From contig JBAXWB010000007.1 in assembly GCA_037128595.1 (NCBI GenBank), positions 96,588-160,587 on the forward strand: 64,000 nucleotides of DNA, read 5' to 3'. Origin of the DNA: a bacterium. Lineage in GTDB: Bacteria > Verrucomicrobiota > Kiritimatiellia > CAIKKV01 > CAITUY01. Position 1 is the stretch's first letter. Every line of letters begins with the position of its first letter. The translations under genes and the position numbers were made by a program. Below, in pieces: positions 19,279 to 61,467 of the stretch. The notes beneath the pieces are model-generated. The model was not told the DNA's origin and did not search any database. It worked only from the letters and a program-made list of their open reading frames with translations.

Positions 19279-19296
19279 AGTAGGGGTCCCGGTATT

Positions 19297-41138: not shown

Positions 41139-41259
41139 CTATTTTGACTCGCCTGTTCCAATATCTATATTGACAGCAGCAGAGGCGAAAGCTTAGGCTT
41201 TCCTGCAATTGGGACCTTTGAGTCGCATTTAAGACATACGACAGCAAACAGGAGGTAGC

Positions 41260-41550: not shown

Positions 41551-41605
41551 GTTGTTTCGCGGATAAATTGACAATTACTAAATTCAGATATATTCAGGAG
41601 AAATA

Positions 41606-46022: not shown

Positions 46023-46080
46023 GGAGAGAGGTCGAAGTCGTGAGTTGCGAGTCCAAAGCCGAACGTGGGCACTCGTGACT

Positions 46081-47181
46081 TTATTCGCTTAGGCGATAGC
46101 TTGTGCTCCGCCCGCGACTCGGATTCAGCATCAGGGTGCCACGCTCGAGAAGTTCCCTTATATCACGCAAGGCAGTGTCGGCGGAACAGTGCGCCAGCTT
46201 GGCATATTTGGATGAGGTCAGGTTCCCCTCAAACCCATCCAAAAGCCGGTTGACCACCAGGCGCTGACGGTCATTGATGGCTGACATGTTGATTTTCTCC
46301 CAGATCCGGGCTTTTCGCAAGACACCGGCCAGCGTCGTGTGCGCAAGCTCCAAGGCACGACCCAGACATTCAAGAAACCATTTCATCCACAGGGTGATCT
46401 CGATGGTGCCCTTCTGGCTGGACTCCAAAATCTGATAATAGTCTTTTCGTTCCGCTTCAATCTGGGCTGACATGCTGTAAAACCGAGTAGCCGTGCCATC
46501 AGCTCTGGCCAGGGCCATGTCCGCGATGGCACGGGCAATACGCCCGTTTCCATCCTCAAACGGATGGATCGTCACAAACCAGAAATGCGCCAAAGCGGCC
46601 TTCAATACCGGATCGACGGCAGGCGGCGCGTTGAACCATTGAAGAAACGCGTTCACCTCGGCATCCAGTCTGAGAGCGGCAGGAGCCTCGAAGTGCACCT
46701 TTTCGCGGCCGATTCCACCGGACACCACTTGCATTGGCCCCGACTCCATCGTACGCCATGCCCCCACGGTGATCTTTCTCATATTGCTATAGCCTGTAGG
46801 AAACAGCGCAGCGTGCCAGGAGAAAAGTCGTTCCTGAGTCAGGGGTTCGGCATACTTTTGCGTGGCATCAAGCATCATCTCCACCACGCCCTCAATGTGC
46901 CGGGACGACAGAGGTGTCCCGCCAGTCTCCATCCCCAGTTTACGAGCCAGGGAGGAGCGAACTTCGCCCGCATCCAGTGACTCGCCCTCTATAGCAGCAG
47001 ACTTCACAATATCAACGGTCAAGGTGGCAAGGTGCGCTTCATCACGCAAATGGAACCCCAACGCTTCCATTCGCCCCAGAAGCCGGCCTTGCCGATGCCG
47101 AATTTCCACCAGCGCAGGAGCCAATAGCGCATCATCCCACTTGAAATTCGGCCAATCTCGATCTTCGTATATGTACGGCAT
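46081..47181 (-). CDS. Fic family protein (AMPylase/adenylyltransferase fold) with C-terminal wHTH
   Basis: HPFEDGNGRIARAIADMALAR is the canonical HPFx(D/E)GNGRxxR Fic motif; start moved to MPYIYEDRDWPNFKWDD, the typical Fic N-terminus. Confidence 0.85.
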   Translation of the reverse strand: MPYIYEDRDWPNFKWDDALLAPALVEIRHRQGRLLGRMEALGFHLRDEAHLATLTVDIVKSAAIEGESLDAGEVRSSLARKLGMETGGTPLSSRHIEGVVEMMLDATQKYAEPLTQERLFSWHAALFPTGYSNMRKITVGAWRTMESGPMQVVSGGIGREKVHFEAPAALRLDAEVNAFLQWFNAPPAVDPVLKAALAHFWFVTIHPFEDGNGRIARAIADMALARADGTATRFYSMSAQIEAERKDYYQILESSQKGTIEITLWMKWFLECLGRALELAHTTLAGVLRKARIWEKINMSAINDRQRLVVNRLLDGFEGNLTSSKYAKLAHCSADTALRDIRELLERGTLMLNPSRGRSTSYRLSE

Positions 47182-47347
47182 AAACACCTCACCTGATCGA
47201 GATACTGAACTTTTAACGCGAATAGCGCAAGTATTTACCGCATATCCTGCGGTGATTAAGACGCTTATTCGCCGCAAATACCATCATCTCTCCTTCTGTT
47301 CTGGCTCCTGGATACGGTCATTTTTCGCCTCTTGATTTTATCAATAG

Positions 47348-47380
47348 CCAATGCTAAACAGCTTGAGCATGAGCAAGACC
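47348..47380. repeat. copy 1 of a ~33-bp direct repeat (CCAATGCTAAACAGCTTGAGCATGAGCAAGACC) spanning the start codon of the LacI-HTH gene
   Basis: Second copy at 48947-48979 (about 27/33 identical), immediately after the same gene's stop. Confidence 0.7.
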
Positions 47381-48943
47381 GCTACGTTAAAAGATGTGGC
47401 CATAGCCGCCGAAGTGGATCCTTCGACAGCCTCTTTTGTCATCAACGGCAAAGGAGATAAGCTCCGGATCAGTCCCTCCACCCAGGCTCGGATTATGGCT
47501 GCAGCCCGCCAGTTGGGATACCGCCCGAACGCCATTGCCAGGGATGTCGCTCTGGGGCGCGGTGTCGAGCCGATTATCACAAGTGACGCCTCGTCCACGT
47601 CGGCAATACCGAGAGAGCGGCAAATCGGCCTTGTGCTCTCGGCCACCAGTCCGGGCGAAACCCTGGCCTTGATCCCCAGGCTGGAGCCGCCACTCTCCGC
47701 CGCAGGCTACCAGTTGGTCGTGATCACCCTTCCTGTTGATGAGAGTGCAGTCCGGGAACGAGTGTTGAAACTTGGGTTTGCCGGACTCATCTGCTGTCCC
47801 ACCGTCTACGCCACCGTGTCCACGCTGGTCGCCGGGGTATGTCCCACCATCGTTTTATGGGAAGGCGCAGGGAAGGCGATCTTGATTGCGGTGAGCCCGC
47901 CACGAGCGGATGCAACCGTGGAGGGCAGTAGGCAGTCGGCAGTGAGCAATCCACAGCCTCCGGTACAACCCGCACCACCCATCCTTCAACCCAAACCGAT
48001 AGCCGTTGCGCCAGTTGCAACACCGAAGCCGGTCATCGTGGCTCCAACGCCGAGACCCGTTCCCGCGCCGACACCGGAGCCAATACCTGTGCCTGACACG
48101 GTCCCAGCGCCGGTCTTTACGCCCGAACCCGAGCTGGCTCCGGTGTCGGAGCCGAGTCCGGCCTTGGCCGATCCTGAACCGGTGTTATCGCCTTTGTCGC
48201 CGGAAGCCAGCATGTCAACACCGGCAACACCGGAATTGGATTCCAACCCGGTGCCGGAGACCGCAACACCGGAGCCCATTCCGGTGTCAGAGCCGAGTCC
48301 GGCCTTGGCCGATCCTGAACCCGTATCGTCGCCTTTGTCGCCGGAAGCCAGCGTGTCAACACCGGCAACACCGAAATTGGATCCCAGCCCGGCGACGGAG
48401 GCCGCAACACCGGTGCCGGTCATTGAGCCCAGTGAACTCACGCCGGTCACGGTGGCAGACCCTGCCGCTGACAACCCTTCGACAAGCTCAGGGCAGGCGG
48501 CGGCTACTACAGAAGAAAATTCAATTCCGGTTGTGACCGACGAGGTGCACGCTGCACCTGTAGTAACCGGTGTATCGCCGGTAGAAGCCAATCCAGAGCC
48601 ACAACCGGAACCTGCCCCGGAACCCGTGCCGACATTTACGCCAATCGTTACTTCAGCTCCGGCTCCCGAACCAGTAGCCCCACCCCCTGAACCCATCGCA
48701 GATCCACCGCCAGTGGTTTCCCCGCCGCCCGCGCCAGTGATACCTGCTGAGCCGCCACCTATCATTCCGGTCCCGGCTCCGGCAGAAGTTCTACCGCCAA
48801 CTGATTTTCCGATTCCCGAGGCACCTTCAGCCGACCCGCTGTCAGCAGCGAATGAGGCAACCATCGACACCGATTCGCCGATGTCAGAAACTGATTCGCA
48901 AGCTACGATTTCGCCCGATAAGCAGGCACCACCAATTCAATAA
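47351..48943 (+). CDS. LacI-type HTH protein with degenerate periplasmic-binding-like domain and long Pro/Ala/Thr/Glu-rich low-complexity tail
   Basis: N-terminal ATLKDVAIAAEVDPSTASFVINGKG...ISPSTQARIMAAARQLGYRPNAIARDV is the LacI/GalR HTH. The tail has PEPxP / PAP repeats including a 47-aa tandem duplication. Possible start at the second ATG (MSKTATLKDVA). Confidence 0.6.
   Translation: MLNSLSMSKTATLKDVAIAAEVDPSTASFVINGKGDKLRISPSTQARIMAAARQLGYRPNAIARDVALGRGVEPIITSDASSTSAIPRERQIGLVLSATSPGETLALIPRLEPPLSAAGYQLVVITLPVDESAVRERVLKLGFAGLICCPTVYATVSTLVAGVCPTIVLWEGAGKAILIAVSPPRADATVEGSRQSAVSNPQPPVQPAPPILQPKPIAVAPVATPKPVIVAPTPRPVPAPTPEPIPVPDTVPAPVFTPEPELAPVSEPSPALADPEPVLSPLSPEASMSTPATPELDSNPVPETATPEPIPVSEPSPALADPEPVSSPLSPEASVSTPATPKLDPSPATEAATPVPVIEPSELTPVTVADPAADNPSTSSGQAAATTEENSIPVVTDEVHAAPVVTGVSPVEANPEPQPEPAPEPVPTFTPIVTSAPAPEPVAPPPEPIADPPPVVSPPPAPVIPAEPPPIIPVPAPAEVLPPTDFPIPEAPSADPLSAANEATIDTDSPMSETDSQATISPDKQAPPIQ
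48120..48405 (+). repeat. 141-bp tandem duplication (x2) inside the Pro-rich coding region
   Basis: GAGCCGAGTCCGGCCTTGGCCGATCCTGAACC recurs at 48149 and 48290; encodes TPEP...SEPSPALADPEPV(L/S)SPLSPEAS(M/V)STPATP(E/K)LD twice. Confidence 0.75.
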
Positions 48944-48946
48944 TAA

Positions 48947-48979
48947 CTAATGCTCAACAGCTTGAGCACAAGCAAATAG
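48947..48979. repeat. copy 2 of the 33-bp repeat; contains the perfect palindrome TGCTCAA-CAGC-TTGAGCA (48951-48968) and would encode MLNSLSTSK*
   Basis: Read directly; it recapitulates the first 9 codons of the LacI-HTH gene, then hits TAG. Confidence 0.7.
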
Positions 48980-48986
48980 CGAGGTA

Positions 48987-49616
48987 TCAAATCTTCGTGG
49001 ACACAGTGGACTTTGCTGACGGGGTTGACCAAGGACGTGGCGAACGTTTCTCGGAGCGGATCCGGTAGAGGCGTTCAGTGAAACCGCCTTCGGCCTCAAA
49101 AGCAGAGGCTTGAGATGCAATTTGGCGATCAAGCAAACTGCAGGCAACCGCCAGCAAAACCAGCGCCGCATTGGCCGCAAGTTCAGGATATGGGTTTTGT
49201 CCACTTGGTCCACCCAGTCCACTCCCCCGATTATCCCGCACCCAGACAGCCACATCATCCGCGGTCACGCAACGGCGATCAATCAGGTTTTGTCGGCGAG
49301 GATCCTCGCGCTTCCAGATCGGCATGCTTCTCTGGCGAAGGAAATCTTCGTAATCGAGGCGGAGTTCTTCCAAACTGGCACGGGCCACATTCGTAAGTTT
49401 CAGTTCGGTCTTTTTGGAAGTTCCCGAAGCCTGGCTCCCTTCGGCAATATTCTGGACCCCGGACCGCGCCGCCTGGACCATCTGGTCATGGGTACGACTT
49501 CGCCGGTCAATGAATCGGTCGCAAAAACGCACGGTGATATCGAAAGCCAATTGAGCGACCTGAAAGCTTTTGAGCTTCCGGTAGCCTCCATGCACAGGTA
49601 TGAGCGGCTCGGCCAT
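48987..49616 (-). CDS. four-helix-bundle protein (TIGR02436-like, 23S rRNA IVS protein family) with C-terminal extension
   Basis: GYRKLKSFQVAQLAFDITVRFCDRF ... AARSGVQNIAEG ... NVARASLEELRLDYEDFLRQ matches the family pattern (YRxL, NIAEG, SLxEL). Confidence 0.6.
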   Translation of the reverse strand: MAEPLIPVHGGYRKLKSFQVAQLAFDITVRFCDRFIDRRSRTHDQMVQAARSGVQNIAEGSQASGTSKKTELKLTNVARASLEELRLDYEDFLRQRSMPIWKREDPRRQNLIDRRCVTADDVAVWVRDNRGSGLGGPSGQNPYPELAANAALVLLAVACSLLDRQIASQASAFEAEGGFTERLYRIRSEKRSPRPWSTPSAKSTVSTKI

Positions 49617-49798
49617 TATTCATCAACTCCTGCTTATTAAGCAGGTAATATGACAGCACCAGCCGAGTTTCGTCTATCTGCGCCAGTAACGATTTTTCTA
49701 TCAGCGAATGTTGGAGCAGAGCGGTGTTGTTGCGGTATTGCAACTTACTCAGCTTCGTACTATTGTTTCAGAACATTACAGGGAGACAAACCTTCAGC

Positions 49799-50500
49799 AT
49801 GCCAGACAAACACACAGATATTCGCTACACGCCCCTTTACCGACTGCCCGAAGTAGCAATGTACACGCATGGCAACTTGAGCACGCTTCGCACATGGGTT
49901 ATGGGGCGTTCACACGCCACCAAAGATGGCCAAAAATACCAGCCAGTAATCAAGGTCGAACAACCTAACCGCGCGGATGCCTTAAGTTTTATCAACTTGA
50001 TCGAAAGTCACGTTCTGGTGGCATTGAGGAGGACTCATCAAGTTCCCCTGCCTAAAATCAGGGATGCCGTCCTTTGGCTCCAGCAGGAAACGGGTTCAGA
50101 ACATCCTCTGGCAGAACTCCAGATCGAGACAGACGGACTTAATGTTTTCTTTCGCCATTTAAATCAAATCATTAGTGCTTCCGAGAAAGGCCAAGTGGTA
50201 ATTCGGGATGTCATGGAGCGCTACCTGCGCCGGATCGAACGTGACGCCAAAGGCATTCCTATCAGTTTTTGCCCCTTCACCCTTTCGGATCCTTTGCGTG
50301 ATTCTCAAACCGATATCATCATGGATCCTGCCGTTGCATTCGGACGCCCAGTGATCCGGGGAACACGCATTGCAACCGCCACAATTTTGGAGCGCTATAA
50401 AGCGGGGGAAGGCCTGACTGACCTCTCAAAAGACTATGACTTGGAGATGAGACTCATTGAAGAAGCACTCCGCTGCGCAATCGACCAGCAAGCCGCCTGA
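49799..50500 (+). CDS. DUF433-domain (antitoxin-like) protein with long N-terminal extension
   Basis: C-terminal IIMDPAVAFGRPVIRGTRIATATILERYKAGEGLTDLSKDYDLEMRLIEEALR is the DUF433 fold. ATG 49799 with GGGAGA RBS preferred over GTG 49724. Confidence 0.6.
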   Translation: MPDKHTDIRYTPLYRLPEVAMYTHGNLSTLRTWVMGRSHATKDGQKYQPVIKVEQPNRADALSFINLIESHVLVALRRTHQVPLPKIRDAVLWLQQETGSEHPLAELQIETDGLNVFFRHLNQIISASEKGQVVIRDVMERYLRRIERDAKGIPISFCPFTLSDPLRDSQTDIIMDPAVAFGRPVIRGTRIATATILERYKAGEGLTDLSKDYDLEMRLIEEALRCAIDQQAA

Positions 50501-50888
50501 CGCTTTCCGACTGGTTCTTGACGAAACCTTGGCCGGAAAATCCATTCTGGAAGGACTGCAGCAACAAGGTATTCCTGCAATCCCCTTAACTGAATTCGTT
50601 CCCAGGGGAGCGACAGATGAAGCGGTGCTGGAAGCATTGGCGCAAAAGGGAGACCTGTACTTTATCACCCGCGACCATCATTTCCGGTATCATCCAGGGG
50701 TCAAAGAAAGACTTCTTGCAGGTGGAGTGGGTGCATTTGTCATCACATCAGCAGGGAATAAGACGGCCGCGCAAATAGTTGAGCTTTTGTTAGCAGCCTG
50801 GCCCCACATTAATAAATTTGTGAGTACCCACCAACGGCCCTTTGCAGCCAAGGTAGCCGCATCCGGGAAAATCGAGTTACACTCGTAA
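50457..50888 (+). CDS. DUF5615-family (Mut7-C / PIN-like) putative toxin; start uncertain (TTG)
   Basis: FRLVLDETLAGKS ... GDLYFITRDHHFRY resembles the DUF5615 N-terminal LxDENL and D-rich core; partners with the DUF433 protein. Confidence 0.5.
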   Translation: MKKHSAAQSTSKPPDAFRLVLDETLAGKSILEGLQQQGIPAIPLTEFVPRGATDEAVLEALAQKGDLYFITRDHHFRYHPGVKERLLAGGVGAFVITSAGNKTAAQIVELLLAAWPHINKFVSTHQRPFAAKVAASGKIELHS

Positions 50889-50945
50889 CAGTCCCGTTAC
50901 GCATTGCAGAATGTCGCTTCCACCAGGTTGAGATAATCTAGTCCG

Positions 50946-52058
50946 CTAAATTCCGCGTTTGTCTTCAATTAACTTGAAGTAATTCATCAGCGCCTTCGGC
51001 CGGTATTTCGGATCGCCATCCCACCGCGACAAGACACTGGCATGCAAAGACTGGGTTGGATCAATTGAGGGGGCCGTTTTACGCGATTCGGCAGGGCCTG
51101 AAGGCTGGCCGATGGCACGATCTATACCGAAGGTGGGCCAATAGACGCCGGTTTTGGAGTTATGCAGTTTGGCGAGAGGATCAGGATGGATCAAATGGGT
51201 TTGAATTACACCTTCATCAAAGACCAATCCGGCTCCGCGTGCCTTCTCAATCATCCATCCCAGGGCAATATCCGAATGTCCACATTCCGAGGCCGGATAC
51301 CCGCCGCCGATATCACTATGCGCACCACAAAACCAGACTTGTTCAACTGTCTGCCCCGGTTTCGGCACATAGTCCCATATTGACGGGGCGAATGGGGCGC
51401 GATGCTCATCAATGGCTAGGGCGTGGTAAGCAGATTCAACCGTCTTACTTAATTCCGTGTCGTGGAACTGAAAATCATGCCGGGTAAGATACCGCAATCC
51501 CCGTAACGGTATACCAAGCGCACCCACCGTATCCCAAACCCCAATAAACTTAATGGGAATATTTTCGGCACCACAAATGGAAAAGTCCGTCCTGAATTTA
51601 AGCGGCTGCTCATCGTCGGGATGGACGTCCATCTTCCTGTACAAATCAATTGCGTCCCGGTAATGCTGAACAAATTCACGCTTGAGAATGCCACATTTGC
51701 GAATCATCCCGGCAATACTGCGAGCGGTAAAGGCCCCGCGACTAAACCCAAACAGAAAAATCTCATCCCCAGGCTCATAATTGGCCACCAGAAACCGATA
51801 GGCATCATGAATATTGGCCTCCAACCCTTCGCCAAAAGCCCCACCTGTCGCCCTATCGACCGAATTCCCCGTCCCAACCCCCTGATCGTAATAGATGATC
51901 TGAGGAATATCGCCATCCCGCTTGGCCACTCGATAGGCAATTTTTACGACATTAGAGGGGCAAGGAACGCCATTATCATCTTCCTGGTCGGGCTTATTCC
52001 AGGTGCCGTCACAACAAAGAATGAGTCTTTTCACTTTTACCCCATAATTCTGATTCAC
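50946..52058 (-). CDS. DUF2235 alpha/beta-hydrolase (T6SS Tle1-type phospholipase fold), last gene of the four-gene system
   Basis: LILCCDGTWN N-terminal block and GFSRGA nucleophile elbow (GxSxG) are hallmarks of DUF2235/Tle1; GTG start, 22 nt after the ATPase gene. Confidence 0.7.
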   Translation of the reverse strand: MNQNYGVKVKRLILCCDGTWNKPDQEDDNGVPCPSNVVKIAYRVAKRDGDIPQIIYYDQGVGTGNSVDRATGGAFGEGLEANIHDAYRFLVANYEPGDEIFLFGFSRGAFTARSIAGMIRKCGILKREFVQHYRDAIDLYRKMDVHPDDEQPLKFRTDFSICGAENIPIKFIGVWDTVGALGIPLRGLRYLTRHDFQFHDTELSKTVESAYHALAIDEHRAPFAPSIWDYVPKPGQTVEQVWFCGAHSDIGGGYPASECGHSDIALGWMIEKARGAGLVFDEGVIQTHLIHPDPLAKLHNSKTGVYWPTFGIDRAIGQPSGPAESRKTAPSIDPTQSLHASVLSRWDGDPKYRPKALMNYFKLIEDKRGI

Positions 52059-52080
52059 TGCCTACATGCCCTTGCACCCC

Positions 52081-54044: not shown

Positions 54045-54946
54045 AACTCAAGAGTTTTAGGTTCTTCAAAAATATCACACCTCTCAAAATAATAAGCAAT
54101 CACCGTCAAGACTGCCAGTTCATGCTCTGGCGTGCCGCGGTGGCCACCTCCAGCCCATGATTGTAGCTCAAAAAAAACCTCATTTGGGCTAAATTTAGTC
54201 CGGAGTTCTTGATATTTGGCCTTGAATGATTCAGCGATGCGCTCCCCTAACGTTTCGTCATGCCACTTGCTGAAGAAAGTTTCGACTAACAATGCCTTGG
54301 TGATACCAACCTTCAATAAATCGGTGACGCTTATAGACAATGCATTAGCTTCGATCTTCCCCATGGGCACTTCCCTCACCGCAAGTGCTGTCAGCACTGG
54401 TCGTTTTGCGATGGTTTCTAACACAACTTGTAAATCTTTAAAACCCAAATGAGTCTTGGTCTCTTCTGAAGGAACAGGTCCAAACCAAGACTGGAGGTCG
54501 TCGTGTGACAATCTACGAAATACGAGGCGAAATTCCTCTAAACCCCATGTTTCCAGCGTAATACCTGAATTGGCTACTTCAAAGTCGAGCACAAACTTTT
54601 GAACATGCGGAGGAATTCCCCCAGTTGCGTTGTGCGCGAAAACCCATTTATCAAAATGTTTACCCCAGTAGGCTTTGGCCCCCTCAAAATCCTCGGTAAT
54701 TTTCGAAATTGCCTTGGATGCCTCCATCTCGTTTGGCGCATATACTTGAAATAATCTTCTTTCTGATTTCAGAAAACCATCGTTCTTACGGTCTCCCTGA
54801 TTCCCCCATGGCCGACAAGCCATAAAATCAGCCTTGTAAGCCAAGCCCATCAATCTTTCGAAAAGTGACTGAAATTCGTTACCCTTCGCCCGGAGAAAGG
54901 CAATCTCGAAACCTTGCTCATAAAATGCTTTTTGTAGGCGGTCCAT
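54041..54946 (-). CDS. hypothetical 301-aa protein; candidate effector/C-terminal-domain component (possible degenerate Mrr-like nuclease N-domain)
   Basis: Starts 3 nt after the hsdMS stop. N-terminal FMACRPWGNQGDRKNDGFLKSERRLFQVYAP loosely resembles Mrr-cat (GDxGxDG...QxK); the C-terminal half is helical. Confidence 0.45.
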   Translation of the reverse strand: MDRLQKAFYEQGFEIAFLRAKGNEFQSLFERLMGLAYKADFMACRPWGNQGDRKNDGFLKSERRLFQVYAPNEMEASKAISKITEDFEGAKAYWGKHFDKWVFAHNATGGIPPHVQKFVLDFEVANSGITLETWGLEEFRLVFRRLSHDDLQSWFGPVPSEETKTHLGFKDLQVVLETIAKRPVLTALAVREVPMGKIEANALSISVTDLLKVGITKALLVETFFSKWHDETLGERIAESFKAKYQELRTKFSPNEVFFELQSWAGGGHRGTPEHELAVLTVIAYYFERCDIFEEPKTLEL

Positions 54947-54949
54947 GTT

Positions 54950-57481
54950 TTAACCCTCCGTGTTTGCTATTTCTTCTCCCCACACCCGCCCCAACGTCGT
55001 CTGGATCTTCTTCTCAAATCGGACGATCAGTTCGCGGTTCGCCGCTACCAGCGCTTGCTCGGCTTCGATCTCCGCAATGATCGCTTTCTGCGTGGCGAGG
55101 GGCGGGAGGGGAATTTGAACGGAAGACAGAATGCCTTGGTTTAAGTTCTTCATTGTGACGCCAATGGCTTGTTCTTCGAGATATGCCCTAACCTTTTGAG
55201 ATGCAATTTGGAAGAAAGCGAATCGAGGGAGGCACTTGCTTTTTAAACGAATGACAAAACTCCCAGTACCGCAAAGCCAGCCAGCCATGTCCGCAGAGAC
55301 CACTGCACACCTTCCCATTTCACCTCGCCTACCGATAACAATGTCATTCCCCTGGACAGTGAATTCTTTTAGGCGGTCTCTGGTGGCAGCGGACACCATC
55401 TTTACACCATCAGTGCTTATAGCTCCATCGACTATGTTTTGCGGATTGATGACAGGTATTCCATCCGCGACGTAATCACTTTGGTGTAGAGCAGTTCCGA
55501 ATGGACCGGTCATTATGGCCTCACACACCTCCCCCAACTCCACCATCGGCCACCCGGGGTCAATAGTGATGTGGGGGCAGTAGTTATCGAGGACGGCGCG
55601 GGCACCATCGATGACTTTCTGGTAACCCTCGATCTCTGTCACGATCTCCTTCTGTATCTCTAATGGCGGAAGGGGGATTTGAATCGACCTCAAGATCGGC
55701 ATATTTAAACCGCTTCGTTCATTGTCTCCCGTTAATGCCCGAATTTCTGCATACATCGAGCGAAGCACCCAAAAGACAAACTCTACGACTGCTCGGGGTG
55801 GTTGCGCCGGGGTAATAGCAACGAGAGATTGGTTACAAGTAGCACCTTCCATACGCAGCAATGCAACTGTCCCGCGCGTTTTCCCCTGCCCATTAAGCGC
55901 GATTAAAACACTGTCCTTTGGTAAGATTCGGGCATTCGAGTTCTCCACTGCCTTCCGGGTAATGCGCTTCTCGCAATCCCAAATCTCAAACCCATGAATA
56001 TCACCCGATACCAACCATGGAACGGACCCATTCTCGTAATATTCCGCGAGGGTTGAGGTTGGTGTTCCCCCAGTCATAAAAGTGCATATTTCTCCAAGTG
56101 AAACGGTTGGCCATTTTCCCTGAAGCATCCGTGTTTGCTCGCTATACCGCTCTCCACTGAGGTTGTAGTCGCCATTGGCGCCTATCTTTTCTTTTGGAAC
56201 GATGAGTCCCGTGGTGATGGCTATGCTCTCGACTCGCTGCTTGGCTCGGATTGCTTGAAGGTAGGACTCCAATTCACCCTGCACTTGCGGAAGGTCATTT
56301 TTATTGAAGGCGCGGCGCTGAGCCCCGAGGCCGAAACCGTCGTTTTCAACTTTGAAAAAGGCGATGGTCTGGCATTGCCGGGCCAGGGATTTGTCGAGAA
56401 TGAGAATACTGGTCTTCACTCCTGAGTAGGGATTGAAACAGCCCGCTGGCAGGGAGATGACGGCGACCAGGCTGGTATCCACCAGCATCTTGCGTAGTTC
56501 TTTGTAGGCGGTCTGGCTCTGGAAGATGATTCCCTCTGGCACAATGATGGCGGCGCGGCCGGTAGGCGTAAGATGCTCGGCCATGTAATCCACAAACAGG
56601 ACTTCACTGCGCTTGGCCTGGATGGAGAAGCGCTTATGGGGCTTGATCCCGCCTTTGGGTGACATGAAGGGCGGGTTGGCCAGAATGACATCGGAAAAAT
56701 CGTTCCAGCGCTCTTCGGAGGTAAGGGTGTCGTATTCGTAAATGTGGGGATCGGTAAAGCCATGAAGATAAAGGTTCACCAGGGAGAGGCGTACCATGTC
56801 GGGCGAGATGTCATAGCCCTTGAAATTCTTGGCGAGGCGCCCTTTGTCGTCAGGCGTCAATTTGCTGTGGCCCTTGGCGTCGGTGTTGTTGCGAAGAATA
56901 TGCTTATAGGCAGAGATGAGGAAACCGGCGGTACCGCAGGCGGGATCAAGGATGCTCTCGCTTTTCTTCGGCGCGAGCACCTCTACCATGAAGTCGATGA
57001 TATGGCGTGGAGTCCGGAACTGCCCAGCATCGCCCTGACTGCCCAACACGGAAAGCAGATACTCAAAGGCGTCGCCCAGCTTTTCGCTATGGTCATAGCT
57101 GAACTCGTTAACGATCTTGAGGAAAGACTTGAGCGTCTCGGGGTCACGGTACGGGAGATAGGCGTTTTTGAAGATATCGCGAAAGAGCGGCGGGATGCCG
57201 GGATTCTCCGGCATCCTGGAAATGCCTTCACCGTAGAGGCCAAGCATCTCGTGCCCACCAAGTGAGGGCGCCATGAGTTTGGCCCAGCCGTAGCGGGCGA
57301 ACTCCTTGGTGAAAAACTTGCGCTTTCCCCCAAGCTCCTCGGATTCGGCATCCATGTCATCCATGAATTTATAGATCAGCGCAATGGTGATCTGCTCAAC
57401 CTGGGATTTGGGATCAGGCACTTTGCCAACAAGAATGTCACGAGCGGAGTCGATGCGGCGTTTGGTGTCAGTATCTAGCAT
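54950..57481 (-). CDS. hsdM: type I restriction-modification methyltransferase and specificity subunits fused in one ORF (HsdM-HsdS)
   Basis: N-terminal HsdM N-domain; QFRTPRHIIDFMVEVL; DPACGTAGFLISAY (motif I); ILANPPF (motif IV); IVPKEKIGANGDYNLSGERY HsdM C-terminus. This continues without a stop into two TRDs (KWPTVSLGEICTFMTGGTPTST and GWPMVELGEVCEAIMTGPFGT) with the conserved LPPLEIQKEIV and LPPLATQKAIIAEIE HsdS coiled-coil repeats. Start at ATG 57481 (MLDTDTKRRID). Confidence 0.8.
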   Translation of the reverse strand: MLDTDTKRRIDSARDILVGKVPDPKSQVEQITIALIYKFMDDMDAESEELGGKRKFFTKEFARYGWAKLMAPSLGGHEMLGLYGEGISRMPENPGIPPLFRDIFKNAYLPYRDPETLKSFLKIVNEFSYDHSEKLGDAFEYLLSVLGSQGDAGQFRTPRHIIDFMVEVLAPKKSESILDPACGTAGFLISAYKHILRNNTDAKGHSKLTPDDKGRLAKNFKGYDISPDMVRLSLVNLYLHGFTDPHIYEYDTLTSEERWNDFSDVILANPPFMSPKGGIKPHKRFSIQAKRSEVLFVDYMAEHLTPTGRAAIIVPEGIIFQSQTAYKELRKMLVDTSLVAVISLPAGCFNPYSGVKTSILILDKSLARQCQTIAFFKVENDGFGLGAQRRAFNKNDLPQVQGELESYLQAIRAKQRVESIAITTGLIVPKEKIGANGDYNLSGERYSEQTRMLQGKWPTVSLGEICTFMTGGTPTSTLAEYYENGSVPWLVSGDIHGFEIWDCEKRITRKAVENSNARILPKDSVLIALNGQGKTRGTVALLRMEGATCNQSLVAITPAQPPRAVVEFVFWVLRSMYAEIRALTGDNERSGLNMPILRSIQIPLPPLEIQKEIVTEIEGYQKVIDGARAVLDNYCPHITIDPGWPMVELGEVCEAIMTGPFGTALHQSDYVADGIPVINPQNIVDGAISTDGVKMVSAATRDRLKEFTVQGNDIVIGRRGEMGRCAVVSADMAGWLCGTGSFVIRLKSKCLPRFAFFQIASQKVRAYLEEQAIGVTMKNLNQGILSSVQIPLPPLATQKAIIAEIEAEQALVAANRELIVRFEKKIQTTLGRVWGEEIANTEG

Positions 57482-57484
57482 TTT

Positions 57485-57511
57485 GGATTTCTGATTGAGG
57501 ATTTCTGATTG
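57485..57511. repeat. tandem GGATTTCTGATTG x2 between the four-helix-bundle gene and hsdM
   Basis: Inverted relative to 57902-57928 ((T/C)AATCAGAAATCC, CATTCAGAAATCA); together they bracket the four-helix-bundle gene. Confidence 0.7.
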
Positions 57512-57531
57512 TATGGCACGTATTGTGAAAA

Positions 57532-57894
57532 TTATTGATTGTTTTGTTTGGCGGTACGGCCAGATGCGACAAATATAGCGGTGAGTTCCCCGGCTTCTTG
57601 ATGTAGTTGCGCAACCTTCCCTGCGGGAAGAAGCCCACCTTCCATAATTAATTCCATCCAAAGGGAACTTTCATCGGCTTCCTCGGCAACGACGCCAATC
57701 TTGGCGACAAACTCTGCTTTAGAACGGCTTCGGCATGAGGCACGATAATTGGCACCTACAGAGGTACCACTGCGCACAAGTTGATTTCCGATGGCTCGAC
57801 CTGCAGTGGTTTTCGGCAACGCATCGACGAGTTTCAGCACTCTCAATGCAAAAACCTTCGTCCGTTGCTTCAGTTCTGCCTCGTTCATGAGCAT
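57532..57894 (-). CDS. four-helix-bundle protein (TIGR02436, 23S rRNA intervening-sequence protein family)
   Basis: 120 aa; LKQRTKVFALRVLKLVDALPKTTAGRAIGNQLVRSGTSVGANYRASCRSRSKAEFVAKIGVVAEEADESSLWMELI is the textbook family pattern. Inserted between hsdR and hsdM. Confidence 0.8.
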   Translation of the reverse strand: MLMNEAELKQRTKVFALRVLKLVDALPKTTAGRAIGNQLVRSGTSVGANYRASCRSRSKAEFVAKIGVVAEEADESSLWMELIMEGGLLPAGKVAQLHQEAGELTAIFVASGRTAKQNNQ

Positions 57895-57901
57895 TTTCTC
57901 C

Positions 57902-57928
57902 TAATCAGAAATCCGCATTCAGAAATCA
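57902..57928. repeat. TAATCAGAAATCC / CATTCAGAAATCA, inverted partner of 57485-57511
   Basis: Lies between the hsdR stop and the four-helix-bundle start. Confidence 0.7.
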
Positions 57929-57937
57929 AAAATCACT

Positions 57938-60472
57938 TTAAGCCGCAAATTGGTTCAGTGACACGTAGTCTTTAATATATTCCGGGATCAGTGTCCGGTA
58001 TTTCGCGGGAACGGCCTTGAAGTCTTTTGTTGAGAAAGCAGGATTCGTGGCAAGATCGGCGTATTCTTTTTCGTCAATGATGTGGCGGACACGGCCGTCG
58101 GTGATGTAGGCCTTGAAGTAAGTTTTAATTGCCGGGATGGCCTCGGCTTCTTCGGGCTTGGTGTCGGCCACAAATTTGGCGAATTCCTCCTCCAGCAACT
58201 CGTCCTTGGATTTGAAACTGGGAATGAGACCGAAGATTTTCTCCAGGATCTCCCGCAAGGTGAGGCGCCGGTCCACTGCGGCCGCTTTGCGCAGTTTGTC
58301 CAGGGTGTAATATTCCCGGGGTTTGTCAAAAACCTCGCGGTTGACATAGTCAATGACTCGGTCCCACTGACCCGCCTCAATGGCGGCGGCAATGGTCTTG
58401 TTATCGCGTACGGCATCCTCGAATTTCTCAAAGAACATCCGGTCGATTTTCATCCCCTCATAGCCAATGGTCGCCTCCTTGACCGAGGCGATGATGTCCG
58501 CACCTTTATGATCATAAATACCACCAGGTGGGGGCGGTGGGTTGGGCCCCTCCCCACCTTTACCTTTCGGCTTGGGTAACTTCAGCACCTCGTCATACTT
58601 GAACTCCTGTTCGAAGTATTCGCAGTTGGCAAAAAAATCGAAAAGTTTATAGGCGCTCTTCTGGGGCTTTGTCACCCCCTCCTTGATGGCCGGATCAAAG
58701 ACCTGTTCCAGAAAGTTGTGCTTACGGGTGCCGCGTCCCTTGATCTGAATGAAATCAGTAGGCGAGAAAATGGGACGGAACAGTCCGAGGTTCAGGATAT
58801 CCGGACAATCATAACCGGTGGTCATCATGCCCACAGTCACACAGACCCGGGCCTTACTGGTCTTGTAGGCCGGAATGAAGTTGGCGGAACCCAGCAATTT
58901 GTTGTTGGTGAAGTTGATGGTGTGCTGCTGGGCTCCATCCACCTGAGAGGTCACCTGCACGGCAAAATCCGACTGGTATTTGCCGGGGAACATGCGGTCG
59001 GCCATCTGGTTCAGGATTTGCGTCAATTTGGCCGCATGGTTCTGGCTGACCGCAAAGATAATCGACTTGCCAATCTCACCGCTGACAGGATCACGAAGAG
59101 CATTTTCGATGAACGTCTTGCAAAACAACTGATTGGTGGAATCGGCAAAAAACCGCTTTTCAAACTCGCGCTGTTTATAGGCCTCCTCCTGGTCTTCCCC
59201 GGCATCATCCTTAAAGGTAACGACAAATCCCTCTTCGGAAAGAAGTTCGGTGGTGATTTCGGTGCGGGCATCCACCACCGTGGGATTAATCAAATACCCC
59301 TCCTTGACGCCATCAAGCAGGGAGTAGCGGTAAGTGGGCTGGCTGTTTTCGCACCCGAAAGTGCGGTACGTATCCAACAACAGTCGGCGCTCGGCTTCAC
59401 GCGGGTCACGCGTGGAGGCCTTGGCATGATCAAACCGCTTGAGGTAGTCACGGGGGGTGGCCGTCAACCCCAGTTTATACCCGATAAAATAATCAAACAC
59501 CGCGCGGGCATTGCCGCCAATGGAGCGGTGAGCTTCGTCAGAGATCACCAGGTCGAAATCCGTCGGCGAGAAAAGCTTCTGATATTTGTTATTGAACAAC
59601 AGGGACTGCACAGTGGTCACTACAATTTCCGCATGACGCCAGTCGTCCCGGTTTTCCTTGTAAATGACGGTCTTGAAGTCGGCCGAAAGCTGGGCATCGA
59701 ATGCTTTCTGGGCCTGGGTTTCCAACTCAAGACGGTCCACCAGAAACAGCACACGCCGGGCGTTGCCGGACCGCAAGAATAACTTGATCACCGCAGCGGC
59801 CGTCAAGGTCTTGCCGGTCCCCGTGGCCATCTCGAAAAGAAACCGGTCCTTCCCTTCTTTTACGGCCCGCTGTAAGGCATGGATGGCGTTCAACTGGTAA
59901 GGACGCAGAAAGCGGAGTTTATTGACCTGGATATAGCCGGGCCGCTCGGCTTCATTTTTCCAGGCCGCCTCGGATTGGTAGTTGGGGCACTGGGTCAGGA
60001 CGATATAGTCCGCACCGACCTGATCCTCGCCCAGTTGTTCCGGATTGGGCTTAACCTGCTGGTAGCCGGCAACGGAATCCGGCGTAGGGAAAGATGTGAT
60101 GAGGCAGGGATTTCCGCGTTCGAGATCCCAGAAATAATGCAGATTGCCATTGGAGAGGATGACAAAGCGGCAGTTTTGCGACTTCGCATACTTACGCGCC
60201 TGTTCTTTGCCGACCAGCGGGTCCTTGTTTTCGGCCTTGGCCTCCAGCACGAGGAAAGGGAAGCCTTTGGCATTGAGCAGGAGAAAGTCGATGAACCCTT
60301 TCCCGGCCTTCTCGAAGTTATTACCCAACGCATCAAGGTCATGCGCCTTAAGCACCACGCTGGGTTCAAGCTGAATGTTGGCGGGGCCGGCGTCGTCTGC
60401 AAAGAAACGCCAGCCGGCGGCTTCGAGCAGTTTATTGATCTTGATACGGGCGGTTGCTTCTTTATCAGCCAT
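57938..60472 (-). CDS. hsdR: type I restriction endonuclease subunit R (HsdR)
   Basis: 844 aa; N-terminal nuclease region; DEAD-box helicase motifs (EMATGTGKT Walker A, DEAH-like VISDEAHRS, TATP); C-terminal HsdR domain. Confidence 0.9.
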   Translation of the reverse strand: MADKEATARIKINKLLEAAGWRFFADDAGPANIQLEPSVVLKAHDLDALGNNFEKAGKGFIDFLLLNAKGFPFLVLEAKAENKDPLVGKEQARKYAKSQNCRFVILSNGNLHYFWDLERGNPCLITSFPTPDSVAGYQQVKPNPEQLGEDQVGADYIVLTQCPNYQSEAAWKNEAERPGYIQVNKLRFLRPYQLNAIHALQRAVKEGKDRFLFEMATGTGKTLTAAAVIKLFLRSGNARRVLFLVDRLELETQAQKAFDAQLSADFKTVIYKENRDDWRHAEIVVTTVQSLLFNNKYQKLFSPTDFDLVISDEAHRSIGGNARAVFDYFIGYKLGLTATPRDYLKRFDHAKASTRDPREAERRLLLDTYRTFGCENSQPTYRYSLLDGVKEGYLINPTVVDARTEITTELLSEEGFVVTFKDDAGEDQEEAYKQREFEKRFFADSTNQLFCKTFIENALRDPVSGEIGKSIIFAVSQNHAAKLTQILNQMADRMFPGKYQSDFAVQVTSQVDGAQQHTINFTNNKLLGSANFIPAYKTSKARVCVTVGMMTTGYDCPDILNLGLFRPIFSPTDFIQIKGRGTRKHNFLEQVFDPAIKEGVTKPQKSAYKLFDFFANCEYFEQEFKYDEVLKLPKPKGKGGEGPNPPPPPGGIYDHKGADIIASVKEATIGYEGMKIDRMFFEKFEDAVRDNKTIAAAIEAGQWDRVIDYVNREVFDKPREYYTLDKLRKAAAVDRRLTLREILEKIFGLIPSFKSKDELLEEEFAKFVADTKPEEAEAIPAIKTYFKAYITDGRVRHIIDEKEYADLATNPAFSTKDFKAVPAKYRTLIPEYIKDYVSLNQFAA

Positions 60473-60704
60473 TCGTTTCCCTATTCCACAGATATGTTTT
60501 CGAGAGTGTCAAAAGGCCACCGGGAAGGCAAGAGCGATGACTTCACCGGTCCGGTTATTTCTTTTCGAGCACCGCCAGGACCCGGTCCAGTTTCGCATTC
60601 AACTGCTTCACCTCGACACTGTTCTTATAGGCCATGGCCACCACTTTAACGGATATCAGAAAGACACCCGCCTCCAGGAACAGGTCGTGAGTCATTCCTT
60701 TGAC

Positions 60705-60795
60705 AAAAAAAAAGGATTCAGAACCCAGAATCCAGGAAGTGATCTCACTCCCCATTCTGACTCCTGAATCCTGACTTCTGGATTCTGTCTTTTTT
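60705..60795. terminator. bidirectional Rho-independent terminator (A9 - nested GGATTCAG / CTGAATCC and CAGAATCCAG / CTGGATTCTG hairpins - T6) downstream of the cyclophilin gene
   Basis: Read directly; the minus-strand transcript of the PPIase gene meets a hairpin followed by a U9 run. Confidence 0.55.
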
Positions 60796-61372: not shown

Positions 61373-61467
61373 AACTGACTCCTTAACCTAAACGCCGCTT
61401 ATGGTATTACAGCCTGCGCTGCCGGTCAATATCGCCGCATTGCCAGCCCGATTCCTTTATTGCTATA

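Follow-up and report, generated by a model that had tools for sequence, protein, structure and literature searches.

A segment between conserved SDR and PPIase genes is probably a core defence hotspot assembled in layers

In an uncultured freshwater bacterium of the PVC group (Verrucomicrobiota or Kiritimatiellia), the segment between an SDR gene and a PPIase gene is most probably a long-lived, variable core defence hotspot that was assembled in layers, with its function read from its genes. It carries variable defence and selfish genes between two conserved chromosomal genes and is an ordinary case of a known kind of locus, for which core defence hotspot (PMC10250203) is the nearest concept. 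We analysed a 64,000-nucleotide stretch of contig JBAXWB010000007.1 (the window), in which a first-pass annotation had proposed a lower-GC island of ~15 kb, implicitly gained as a unit. Our results point instead to a nested mosaic of parts that differ in age.

Bounds and gene content of the hotspot

Comparison with relatives delimits a variable segment of 14.7 kb (46023-60750). Its left bound is the stop codon, at 46022, of the core gene for an SDR-family oxidoreductase with an N-terminal extension (44496-46022, plus strand; Pfam adh_short; GC3 0.79), whose protein has 71-98% amino-acid identity across 80 PVC-group MAG loci. The right flanking core gene encodes a secreted cyclophilin-type PPIase (60794-61372, minus strand; Pfam Pro_isomerase, 1.3e-47), and the genes next to its orthologues (91-95% identity) differ on the side that faces the hotspot. 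The boundary there is the PPIase intrinsic terminator (60704-60794, minus strand), a hairpin plus a run of nine T, with an inverted repeat at 60713-60731/60754-60772 and a terminator-like site on the minus strand at 60733-60714. Near it, homology to the L187-192 group of relatives reaches 60705 and that to L008 and L193 reaches 60751; relatives' homology starts again at 60705-60795, and the segment ends at ~60705-60750. Both edges agree with those drawn at first reading, and the reported lack of a tRNA or integrase was borne out inside the hotspot by a tRNA check and Pfam calls over the block. No target-site duplication, bounding direct repeat or long terminal repeats were found around it.

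Pfam, PADLOC and NCBIfam agree on the gene content named earlier (Fic, LacI/Pro-rich, two four-helix-bundle genes, DUF433/DUF5615, ABC-3C and type I R-M). Conflict genes do dominate, with PADLOC calling a type I R-M system, PDC-M68 and a SoFic-like Fic, in addition to a PIN/COG2442-type toxin-antitoxin pair.

A restriction-modification operon paired with an ABC-3C triad

The right two-thirds of the block is a recurrent pairing of a two-gene type I-like R-M system with an ABC-3C triad. The HsdR-like restriction subunit (57938-60472, minus strand) joins an N-terminal PD-ExK nuclease to an SF2 motor (Pfam ResIII and HSDR_N_2; PADLOC REase_I, 1.2e-58; PDB match 3h1t) and scores 221 bits, under the cut-off, against the NCBIfam EcoAI-family model. 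The fused HsdM-HsdS (54950-57481, minus strand) combines an N6-adenine methyltransferase with a complete two-TRD specificity subunit (Pfam N6_Mtase and two Methylase_S). PDB entries for HsdM match its residues 28-450 and those for HsdS residues 455-616 and 640-826, and the translation includes the motifs NPPF and DPACGTAGF.

The triad (52081-54946, minus strand) corresponds to the PADLOC candidate PDC-M68; ABC-3C belongs to the Lamassu superfamily (PMC10586767). Its LmuB-like ABC ATPase of ABC-3C/Lamassu type (52081-53802, minus strand; Pfam DUF2326 and CTD10) matches PDC-M68B over its full length (PADLOC, 1.3e-147) and LmuB weakly. The LmuC-like middle component 6 (MC6; 53799-54044, minus strand; Pfam MC6, 1.8e-15) precedes it, and the LmuA-like effector (54041-54946, minus strand; Pfam and PADLOC) carries a CTD10 docking domain at residues 171-294, with PADLOC PDC-M68A covering the C-terminal half only. 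The N-terminal domain of the effector is predicted to be a PD-(D/E)xK-like nuclease: the best high-probability Foldseek matches of its AlphaFold2 model (pLDDT 84) were the restriction endonucleases EcoT38I and EcoO109I, together with Can2 and Hef, with none at E <= 1e-3 and a best relevant E-value of 0.046. Residues D51, K53, N54, D55, Q66 and Y68 are invariant.

These three genes form a unit by themselves. MC6 occurs in 80/80 related loci and the effector in 77/80, the remaining three ending at a contig edge, and the order effector-MC6-ATPase has no exception across them. The ATPase has 402 related stretches in metagenomes; triad homologues at 66-81% identity are found in unrelated phyla and on plasmids. 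Plasmids carry both modules (48 the triad family, 130 the R-M family), which are therefore mobile. Of the 34 metagenome loci whose upstream sequence extends for 2.6 kb or more, 11 have the same fused HsdMS directly upstream of the triad. Pairwise identities of effector and ATPase correlate (Spearman 0.76) whereas those of HsdR and ATPase do not significantly (0.24); the R-M and ABC-3C modules re-assort. Defence genes embedded in type I R-M systems have been described (bioRxiv 10.1101/2024.01.29.577857).

The ABC ATPase gene is followed, 22 nt on and in the same orientation, by a gene for a Tle1-like DUF2235 alpha/beta-hydrolase (50946-52058, minus strand; Pfam PF09994, 5.8e-89) with a GFSRG nucleophile-elbow motif. 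This gene adjoins the triad in 0/80 related loci and was ruled out as an ABC-3C component on that ground; it has no PADLOC match and is not a recognised defence gene.

Toxin-type, regulatory-type and four-helix-bundle genes

Left of the hydrolase gene lies a putative VapBC-like pair, comprising an HTH_66 plus DUF433 (COG2442) protein as putative antitoxin (49796-50500, plus strand; Pfam; GC3 0.54) and a PIN_10/DUF5615 PIN-like protein as putative toxin (50457-50888, plus strand; Pfam PIN_10, 3.3e-8, and DUF5615, 7.5e-6; GC3 0.51), whose gene starts before the DUF433 gene ends. PIN-COG2442 pairs are on record (PMC2701414, PMC3834315). At the left end, a DUF4172-Fic protein (46081-47184, minus strand; Pfam DUF4172 and Fic), a class II-like AMP transferase with the motifs HPFEDGNGR and SAAIEG, is a SoFic-like single-gene defence candidate. 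It matches the PADLOC SoFic model over its full length (1.8e-38) but the NCBIfam SoFic equivalog at only 48 bits against a cut-off of 550 bits, and its top PDB match is 8cil, a 'Fic family protein' (4e-95).

The adjacent gene (47351-48943, plus strand) encodes a LacI-type HTH (Pfam LacI, residues 12-60) and a long Pro-rich repetitive tail, includes a 141-nt tandem repeat (48127-48408) and has no PADLOC match. The repeats said to flank it do exist as a 34-nt direct repeat with 85% identity between copies, the second of which is the gene's own 5' end, duplicated. Copy 1 (47343-47376, plus strand) is the true 5' end, spanning the ribosome-binding region and first nine codons, and copy 2 (48942-48975, plus strand) is a truncated duplicate right behind the stop codon. 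In alignments the sequence of copy 1 also lies directly behind the SDR gene in L006 and L008, and L006 homology skips from window position 46030 to 48942; copy 2 looks like a recombination scar.

The two four-helix-bundle genes take the name IVS from the 23S rRNA intervening-sequence protein family. IVS1 (48987-49616, minus strand) is a long form with a C-terminal suffix domain, scoring over the cut-offs of TIGR04258 (66.8 bits) and TIGR02436 (30.5 bits) and under that of Pfam PF05635 (29.3; cut-off 33.8); no inverted repeat was found in its flanks. IVS2 (ORF 57532-57894; PF05635, 50.6 bits; TIGR02436, 75.6 bits) forms a minus-strand cassette (57480-57933) with 31-nt inverted repeats at both ends (57480-57510 and 57903-57933; 90% complementarity), built of GGATTTCTGATT units, a motif that occurs 3 times against 0.38 expected. 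The two arms pair in the minimum-free-energy RNA fold, and the 3' arm finishes at the hsdMS ATG. Close IVS2 homologues occupy the identical hsdR/hsdMS junction in other contigs, and more distant ones lie within BREX, DISARM-like and CRISPR-Cas operons.

Relatives hold different parts of the segment

The segment is accessory, as had been proposed, being missing or replaced in each relative that allowed a comparison (L006, L007, L008, L187-192 and L193-195). In L007 the SDR gene is followed by a 77-nt spacer and then PPIase; the hotspot genes are missing, and the spacer retains a short remnant of sequence upstream of the LacI/Pro-rich gene. L008 has the LacI/Pro-rich gene alone between SDR and PPIase (48% amino-acid identity; 74% nucleotide identity at the 5' end), and because this orthologue sits there the gene is probably native and ancestral-looking. 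L006 is the closest relative. Its SDR gene is followed by a remnant of the 5' end of the LacI/Pro-rich gene, by IVS1 (shared across window 48942-49731 at 95% amino-acid and 89% nucleotide identity) and by a histidine kinase gene; the position of DUF433 is taken by a different gene, a PocR/PAS kinase. The Fic gene is not in L006, L007 or L008.

On the other side, L187-192 match the window along 9 kb of its right flank but carry TSCPD, a LacI-PBP regulator and GDH past PPIase. In L193-195, PPIase is followed by a different Fic (a paralogue with 34% identity to that of the window, on the opposite side of the hotspot) and next by a remnant of the same hsdR, which matches window 60539-60381 and 60226-60056 at 78-81% nucleotide identity. 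Because these relatives hold a decayed hsdR at the same locus, the R-M module appears to be an old resident.

Synteny was informative for three lineages at the SDR end and for two at the PPIase end, and the SDR neighbourhood is poorly conserved outside those three. Ancestral states, and whether each event was a gain or a loss, are thus inferred from a handful of genomes, every one a MAG.

Composition and alternative histories

GC content is 52.6% in the block, against 55.8% in the left and 60.3% in the right flank, but the dip is limited to 49617-54949 (49.3% GC). GC3 is 0.44-0.54 across the six genes in this stretch and is lower in each than in any of the window's 35 reference genes (0.68 +/- 0.064; Mann-Whitney U = 0, p = 2e-7); IVS2 (0.455) likewise lies below them all. 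By contrast, GC3 is native-like in Fic (z = -0.8), HsdMS (z = -1.0) and HsdR (z = -0.1; codon likelihood also native-like, z = +1.3). The LacI/Pro-rich gene has a native-like 61% GC, but both its GC3 (z = -1.3) and its codon likelihood (z = -2.5) are atypical, as its proline-rich repeats would lead one to expect. The lower GC ascribed to the whole block thus holds for 49.6-54.9 kb and IVS2 and not for Fic, R-M or LacI/Pro-rich. The AT-rich stretch seen at ~49.7-55 kb is real but does not mark one island gained as a unit; the LacI/Pro-rich gene is probably native and the codon usage of R-M native-like. In other hosts ABC-3C genes usually lie 0-8 GC points (mostly 3-5) below the adjoining HsdMS, a deficit not present at every locus relative to HsdR. 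The dip of these genes is in part a family trait, and low GC alone therefore gives no arrival date.

These data make it unlikely that all or most of the block is an old, vertically transmitted region that is missing elsewhere through deletions only. Decay by deletion is evident in the hsdR remnant of L193-195, the L007 spacer holds its own short remnant and R-M and Fic codon usage is native-like; such a history is nevertheless at odds with the GC3 of the six genes at 49.8-54.9 kb and of IVS2, with the triad homologues in unrelated phyla and on plasmids, and with the kinase gene at the DUF433 position of L006.

Somewhat less likely still is a single mobile element that brought all SDR-PPIase genes in one insertion. 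It would account for L007, in which SDR is followed by PPIase, for a block GC below both flanks and for the plasmid-borne triad and R-M homologues. The partial sharing, with only IVS1 in L006, only LacI/Pro-rich in L008 and only the hsdR remnant in L193-195, already largely refutes it; integrase, tRNA and bounding direct repeat are lacking, composition is heterogeneous, the Tle1-like gene, toxin-antitoxin pair and Fic are never beside the triad elsewhere, and the R-M and ABC-3C modules re-assort.

An assembly or binning chimera joining the block to the core genes, conceivable for a metagenome contig with internal composition shifts, is highly improbable, given that both junctions recur in independent assemblies (left, SDR-Fic-LacI/Pro-rich, in Logan SRR12676973; right, PPIase and HsdR through the Tle1-like gene, in NCBI GCA_964444235.1; both on a single 121.8 kb contig of ENA ERZ4224321) and that the hsdR remnant beside PPIase in another species ties R-M to the locus independently; the block is no assembly artefact.

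Proposed assembly and function

In a core hotspot assembled in layers, genes would have been gained, replaced and deleted over time, most probably by recombination rather than by one integrase-mediated insertion. In the order we infer, the native LacI-HTH/Pro-rich gene would be the first layer and the old resident operon of HsdR and fused HsdM-HsdS the second. Additions in or beside that operon would follow, with IVS2 at the hsdR/hsdMS junction and the ABC-3C triad directly downstream; the Tle1-like hydrolase, the DUF433/PIN pair and IVS1 may form a fourth layer, and the Fic gene, put between SDR and LacI/Pro-rich, a fifth.

The modules, whose genes may be co-transcribed, suggest stacked protection. 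The R-M system would methylate the cell's own DNA and cut unmodified incoming DNA, and the triad may act as a second, abortive-infection layer, in which the SMC-like ATPase would sense foreign DNA or replication structures and free the nuclease-like effector. Fic and the PIN toxin-antitoxin pair may serve as additional toxin-type modules. The IVS2 inverted-repeat cassette and the defence-operon settings of its homologues merit follow-up.

A defence-rich interval between two core genes

The interval between the left flanking core gene, encoding an SDR protein (44496-46022, plus strand), and the right one, encoding a cyclophilin PPIase (60794-61372, minus strand), is a layered hotspot of known module types. 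Next to the SDR gene lie genes for a DUF4172-Fic protein (46081-47184, minus strand) and a LacI-HTH protein with a proline-rich, repetitive tail (LacI/Pro-rich; 47351-48943, plus strand), followed by IVS1 (48987-49616, minus strand), which encodes a long four-helix-bundle protein of the 23S rRNA intervening-sequence (IVS) family, and by genes for an HTH_66 and DUF433 protein (49796-50500, plus strand) and a PIN_10/DUF5615 protein (50457-50888, plus strand), the latter overlapping the end of the former. The remaining genes, all on the minus strand, encode a Tle1-like DUF2235 hydrolase (50946-52058; PF09994, 5.8e-89), an ABC-3C ABC ATPase (52081-53802; DUF2326, 4e-41; PDC-M68B, 1e-147 over the full length), a middle component, MC6 (53799-54044; Pfam MC6, 1.8e-15), an effector with a CTD10 domain (54041-54946; matched by PDC-M68A in its C-terminal half only), HsdM fused to a complete HsdS with two target-recognition domains (TRDs) (HsdMS; 54950-57481), the short four-helix-bundle protein of IVS2 (57532-57894) and an HsdR-like restriction subunit (57938-60472). 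The first-pass annotation was right to read the block as one of conflict genes: PADLOC matches to a type I restriction endonuclease, methyltransferase and specificity subunit, to PDC-M68A and PDC-M68B, and to SoFic all fall within 14.7 kb.

From hsdR through the Tle1-like gene, every gene has the same orientation and successive genes are spaced by anything from a 4-nt overlap to 50 nt. This is the layout of a single 9.5-kb operon, and the genes are presumably co-transcribed. Scanning for promoters and terminators gave counts at the level of shuffled controls, with only the PPIase terminator convincing. A 66-codon ORF at 60555-60755 overlaps that terminator, has no PADLOC match and no counterpart was seen among the ORFs preceding hsdR at seven other loci carrying the cassette; it is probably spurious.

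The same DNA recurs in ENA ERZ4224321 NODE_130 (121.8 kb), in MAG GCA_964444235.1 and in a Logan assembly. The host is an uncultured freshwater PVC-group bacterium, and the nearest public MAGs carry the labels Kiritimatiellia, Verrucomicrobiota, Chthoniobacter and Pedosphaera.

Compositional deviation is local

GC content is 52.6% across the whole block, compared with 55.8% in the left flank and 60.3% in the right. The stretch at 49.7-55 kb that had appeared AT-rich by eye is indeed so: 49617-54949 has 49.3% GC, and its six genes, with GC3 values of 0.44-0.54, are exceeded by all 35 reference genes of the window (mean 0.68, s.d. 0.064; U = 0, p = 2e-7). Composition deviates from the chromosome in this stretch (49.6-54.9 kb) and in IVS2 (GC3 0.455), and not in the Fic or restriction-modification (R-M) genes, so the earlier description of a lower-GC island of about 15 kb does not hold. 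GC3 is ordinary in Fic (z = -0.8), HsdMS (z = -1.0) and HsdR (z = -0.1), and the codon log-likelihood of HsdR is z = +1.3. The LacI/Pro-rich gene is native-like in overall G+C (61%) and atypical in GC3 (z = -1.3) and codon likelihood (z = -2.5), which the repeats of its proline-rich tail would lead one to expect. Moreover, the dip is partly a family property, because ABC-3C genes are low in GC in other hosts too: where the cassette occurs elsewhere they usually lie 0-8 GC points (mostly 3-5) under the adjacent HsdMS, a deficit that, measured against HsdR, is absent from some loci. The lowest-GC stretch of the window (41139-41807; 46.7%, 1-kb window) is intergenic and holds two 96-codon ORFs.

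No tRNA, rRNA, integrase or transposase was found in 43-64 kb by tRNA and rRNA scans and Pfam searches, bearing out the earlier remark that the block lacks a tRNA and an integrase. At the far left, the window edge truncates a phage-type integrase, of which the N-terminal part (SAM-like domains) remains beside a tRNA-Leu gene (982-1065); this segment (3-1065) probably marks where a separate integrated element, lying left of the window, ends. A further region, 9876-21432, consists of four consecutive large minus-strand ORFs (1084, 646, 1376 and 711 residues) without Pfam matches, three of them somewhat lower in GC (52-54%) and the 1084-residue ORF at 56.4%.

Related genomes carry different contents at the locus

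The SDR protein, searched against one genome for each species, matched at 80 loci, of which only the three closest retain synteny; the other 77 are uninformative in this respect because their neighbourhoods diverge quickly. Locus L007 (SDR 95% identical in amino acids) has an empty site, with 77 nt between the SDR stop codon and a PPIase gene (93%) in the same convergent orientation. L008 (SDR 95%) has an orthologue of the LacI/Pro-rich gene between SDR and PPIase. L006 (SDR 98% in amino acids, 92% in nucleotides) is homologous to the window up to 46030 and then jumps to 48942-49731, which spans IVS1, before a PocR/PAS histidine kinase gene.

From the PPIase side, L187-L192 (PPIase 95%) have 9 kb of the right flank in common with the window, with nucleotide homology as far as window 60705; past PPIase they carry TSCPD, a LacI-PBP regulator and glutamate dehydrogenase. 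In L193-L195 (PPIase 91%), PPIase is followed by a different DUF4172-Fic gene (34% identical to that of the window), a remnant of the same hsdR and arabinose genes. The remnant has 78-81% nucleotide identity to window 60539-60381 and 60226-60056, and its protein identity is 90% over residues 1-31 and 70% over residues 83-168. L195 (3542-5064) provides an example, with Fic directly after PPIase and the truncated hsdR next.

Five different contents thus lie between or beside SDR and PPIase orthologues of 91-98% identity, making the locus variable in every comparison. The R-M system was once present here in another lineage and then decayed, which fits the native-like codon usage of the R-M genes. 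Because the Fic of L193-L195 differs in both sequence and position, Fic entered the hotspot at least twice. Since L007 may have become empty by secondary loss, the direction assigned to any single event is inferred. A second, small presence/absence difference concerns a HAD-family hydrolase gene with native-like codon usage (61438-62274, between a dihydroorotase-shikimate kinase fusion and PPIase), which is missing in L187-L192 with both neighbours kept.

The LacI/Pro-rich gene is bracketed by a 34-nt direct repeat (47343-47376 and 48942-48975) that consists of the ribosome-binding region and first nine codons of the gene, repeated right after its stop codon. We considered these repeats as transposon ends and rejected the idea, as they are the duplicated 5' end of the gene itself. 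The same sequence lies directly 3' of the SDR gene in L006 and L008. The L006 repeat resembles copy 1 and its downstream flank matches the DNA after copy 2; judged from these sequences, two repeat copies appear to have recombined to give the L006 arrangement. None of L006, L007 and L008 has the Fic gene, which in the window separates the SDR stop codon from the upstream region of the LacI/Pro-rich gene. The proline-rich tail is encoded by two tandem copies of a 141-nt unit (48127-48408; 88% identical) and evolves fast, the L008 orthologue being only 48% identical.

The first-pass annotation had read the block as a horizontally acquired island, implicitly imported as one unit. The compositional deviation is local, as described, and we found no direct repeats bounding the block, the only flanking repeat being the one that brackets a single gene. 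Lacking a tRNA or att site, an integrase and flanking direct repeats, the locus is unlike an integrase-mediated genomic island, and a layered hotspot takes the place of the single import. In this it resembles the core defence hotspots cDHS1 and cDHS2 of Pseudomonas aeruginosa (PMC10250203) and the defence-island hotspots of E. coli (PMC10121019): several immune systems lie between conserved core genes, content varies among relatives, GC is below that of the chromosome in part of the locus and there is no single mobilizing element. Those hotspots were described from hundreds of isolates, whereas the present one, only 14.7 kb long, has been seen in just a few MAGs of an uncultured lineage of freshwater PVC-group bacteria.

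A recurrent pairing of R-M and ABC-3C modules

Canonical type I R-M systems have separate HsdM, HsdS and HsdR subunits (M2S1R2) encoded by three genes; here, fusion of M and S in one 843-residue polypeptide leaves two. The HsdR translation contains a D...EAK nuclease motif, a GTGKT Walker A motif and a DEAH box, with Pfam matches to HSDR_N_2 and ResIII and a PDB match to 3h1t; that of HsdMS contains DPACGTAGF and NPPF motifs and two TRDs. The PD-ExK nuclease with an SF2 motor (as in EcoAI or type IB-like HsdR), the NPPF N6-adenine motif and the two TRDs are all type I features, whereas scores fall short of the NCBIfam equivalog cut-offs for HsdM, HsdR and EcoAI. On the strength of these motifs we take the pair to be a functional type I-like system with M and S in one polypeptide.

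PDC systems were proposed as candidates on the basis of their embedding in BREX, DISARM and type I R-M operons (bioRxiv 10.1101/2024.01.29.577857), and ABC-3C belongs to the Lamassu superfamily, with an effector (LmuA), a middle component (LmuC) and an SMC-like ATPase (LmuB) (PMC10586767). The effector-MC6-ATPase triad of the window, candidate PDC-M68, has the same order as LmuA-LmuC-LmuB and DdmABC, and the Pfam domains MC6, CTD10 and DUF2326 are all present. LmuB models match the ATPase weakly (4.5e-9), and the N-terminal domain of the effector is covered neither by the PDC-M68A models nor by any Pfam model. As in R-M-embedded defence systems (bioRxiv 10.1101/2024.01.29.577857), the accessory module is co-oriented and in the same operon; unlike in those systems, it lies downstream of the fused gene and not between the hsd genes. 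We found no literature specific to PDC-M68, DUF2326 or DUF2235 in defence.

Searching metagenomes with the ABC ATPase returned 402 related stretches, from which the best 80 loci (66-81% identity) were kept. Among these best 80, the order effector-MC6-ATPase never changes: all 80 have MC6 and 77 have a full-length effector, the other three being cut by contig ends. The Tle1-like hydrolase adjoins the triad in none of the best 80 and was rejected as a fourth ABC-3C component. Upstream sequence of 2.6 kb or more is available at 34 loci, and in 11 of them the same fused HsdMS (M domain 67-84% identical) lies directly upstream on the same strand, preceded by the same HsdR (61-86% identical) wherever the contig extends that far. 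A few other triad loci are embedded between distant type I-like genes, and the remainder stand beside ordinary genes. Pairwise identities correlate within modules (effector versus ATPase, rho = 0.76; HsdR versus HsdM, rho = 0.52) and not between them (HsdR versus ATPase, rho = 0.24, not significant), so the pairing recurs but the modules re-assort.

Both modules are widely distributed. The effector family has 1285 detectable homologues (~70-77% identity), found in Nitrospirae, Gallionella, Ignavibacteria, Chloroflexi, Akkermansiaceae and other groups, and the triad is on 48 plasmids, where RefSeq names it 'ABC-three component system protein'; no homologue of the ABC ATPase was found in phage genomes. 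The M-S fusion also occurs in relatives and on plasmids, and the two-gene R-M family is on 130 plasmids, E. coli IncF plasmids included. One of these, L199 (NZ_CP116482.1), and 53 other E. coli plasmids carry the family as a 'DEAD/DEAH box helicase' and an 'N-6 DNA methylase' with one fused TRD, followed downstream by a TrlF-family ATPase in place of the ABC-3C of the window. A variable ATPase-based module may be a common downstream companion of the two-gene R-M family.

Searching the PDB with the effector and ABC ATPase sequences gave nothing useful. In an AlphaFold2 model of the effector (pLDDT 84), the N-terminal alpha/beta domain has PD-(D/E)xK nucleases as its best high-probability Foldseek matches (EcoT38I, 0.99; EcoO109I, 0.98; Can2; Hef), with E-values of 0.046 or above and no match at E <= 1e-3, and an invariant GDxKNDG...QxY pattern stands in place of the canonical (D/E)xK triad. 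We provisionally assign the modelled domain to PD-(D/E)xK-like nucleases. By analogy with Lamassu, the ATPase would sense foreign DNA or replication intermediates and then unleash the effector, so that infection would be aborted if restriction fails.

Fic, putative toxin-antitoxin and hydrolase genes

The Fic protein has the DUF4172-then-Fic architecture of the single-gene defence protein SoFic of Shewanella oneidensis, matches the PADLOC SoFic model over its full length and contains both an active-site motif, HPFEDGNGR (HPFx(D/E)GNGR), and an N-terminal inhibitory motif, SAAIEG ((S/T)xxxE(G/N)). It was rejected as a SoFic orthologue, scoring 48 bits against the 550-bit cut-off of NCBIfam NF046030; the PDB structure of SoFic matches the Fic core only (1e-9), compared with 4e-95 for 8cil. 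The DUF433 and PIN-like genes fit the predicted PIN-COG2442 (DUF433) VapBC-like toxin-antitoxin class (PMC2701414, PMC3834315), in which a gene for a DUF433 DNA-binding protein precedes an overlapping PIN-like gene. They differ in having a PIN domain of the PIN_10/DUF5615 branch, in the extra HTH_66 domain of the putative antitoxin and in having no PADLOC model. The hydrolase has the catalytic DUF2235 domain of the type VI secretion (T6SS) phospholipase effector Tle1, but not its context: no VgrG, Hcp, PAAR or immunity gene was found in the larger ORFs called across the 64-kb window.

Four-helix-bundle cassettes in defence operons

The IVS2 cassette (57480-57933) is bounded by 31-nt inverted repeats, complementary at 28 of 31 positions and composed of GGATTTCTGATT units, with the 3' arm ending at the hsdMS ATG. 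The arms pair around the ORF in the predicted minimum-free-energy RNA fold. IVS2 scores 50.6 bits against PF05635 and 75.6 bits against TIGR02436; IVS1 exceeds the TIGR02436 and TIGR04258 cut-offs, falls below that of Pfam, and no inverted repeat was found around it. The PF05635-TIGR02436 family also takes in Avd, an accessory protein of diversity-generating retroelements (DGRs). Like an rRNA IVS, the cassette is a short ORF enclosed by a long inverted repeat able to form a stem; unlike one, it sits between hsdR and hsdMS and not in an rRNA helix. No rRNA was found in the window, and no reverse transcriptase or DGR near IVS2.

The IVS2 family has at least 7973 members. All seven close homologues that we looked up (75-82% identical) are embedded in defence operons: six at an HsdR-[KilA-N]-IVS-HsdMS junction, where in four cases the stop codon overlaps the hsdMS start, and one between BrxC and a PglX-type methylase of a BREX operon. 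Of six plasmid-borne homologues that are more distant, four have DISARM-like, BREX-like or CRISPR-Cas genes on both sides, one is in a housekeeping operon and one is beside an integrase. Cassettes of ~0.45 kb co-oriented in an operon were seen in the window (57480-57933), L095, L166-L186 and L200-L205, and a KilA-N gene often stands between hsdR and the four-helix-bundle gene (L088, L166-L174, L186). PADLOC has no model for IVS four-helix-bundle proteins, and our literature search found no paper describing these genes in a defence-operon context.

Among relatives of the R-M and ABC-3C cassette, the hsdR/hsdMS junction is polymorphic. It is an 11-13-nt spacer with a Shine-Dalgarno-like GGAG or AAGA in L090, L113, L118, L127 and L135, an IVS2-like cassette in L095, a KilA-N gene (1288-1600; PADLOC PDC-S22, 6.7e-42) with an IVS1-like gene in L088 and a 32-codon KilA-N remnant in L128. 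L096 (3950-4394) instead has a 124-residue ORF, of the GxxExxY family by motif reading, with its own 29-nt inverted repeat (CCACAAAAGGCGCAGAAAGCACAAAA / TTTTGTGACTTATGTGCTTTATGTGG), so different small ORF elements occupy the same site across lineages.

Inverted repeats composed of tandem GATTnnn units flank most of the homologues and clearly exceed shuffled controls in 6 of 8 cases in each of two sets. An exact motif search across related loci gave no matches. Cognate arms pair on average no better than non-cognate ones (16.0 versus 13.8) and, as all arms belong to one motif class, covariation provides no evidence for an RNA structure. We suggest tentatively, and with some doubt, that the IVS genes form a distinct operon-embedded class of ~0.45-kb inverted-repeat-bounded cassettes that prefer, or have a function in, methyltransferase-containing defence operons. 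Such cassettes could be selfish IVS-like elements, tolerated because RNA processing removes the stem from the transcript; another possibility is that they regulate the restriction:modification expression ratio through the stem and translational coupling.

Discussion

The defence hotspot documented here is flanked by core genes and belongs to an uncultured freshwater lineage of the PVC group, from which hardly any such loci have been described. Its concrete junctions show a locus built and eroded piecemeal: one gene start survives as a duplicated scar, a relative retains part of hsdR, and a dissimilar Fic gene has inserted elsewhere in the hotspot. The four-helix-bundle cassettes could be the sole element here that goes beyond the ordinary. 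For candidate PDC-M68, the comparisons add support: the triad is strictly conserved, occurs across phyla and, in about a third of informative loci, lies directly downstream of one two-gene R-M family.
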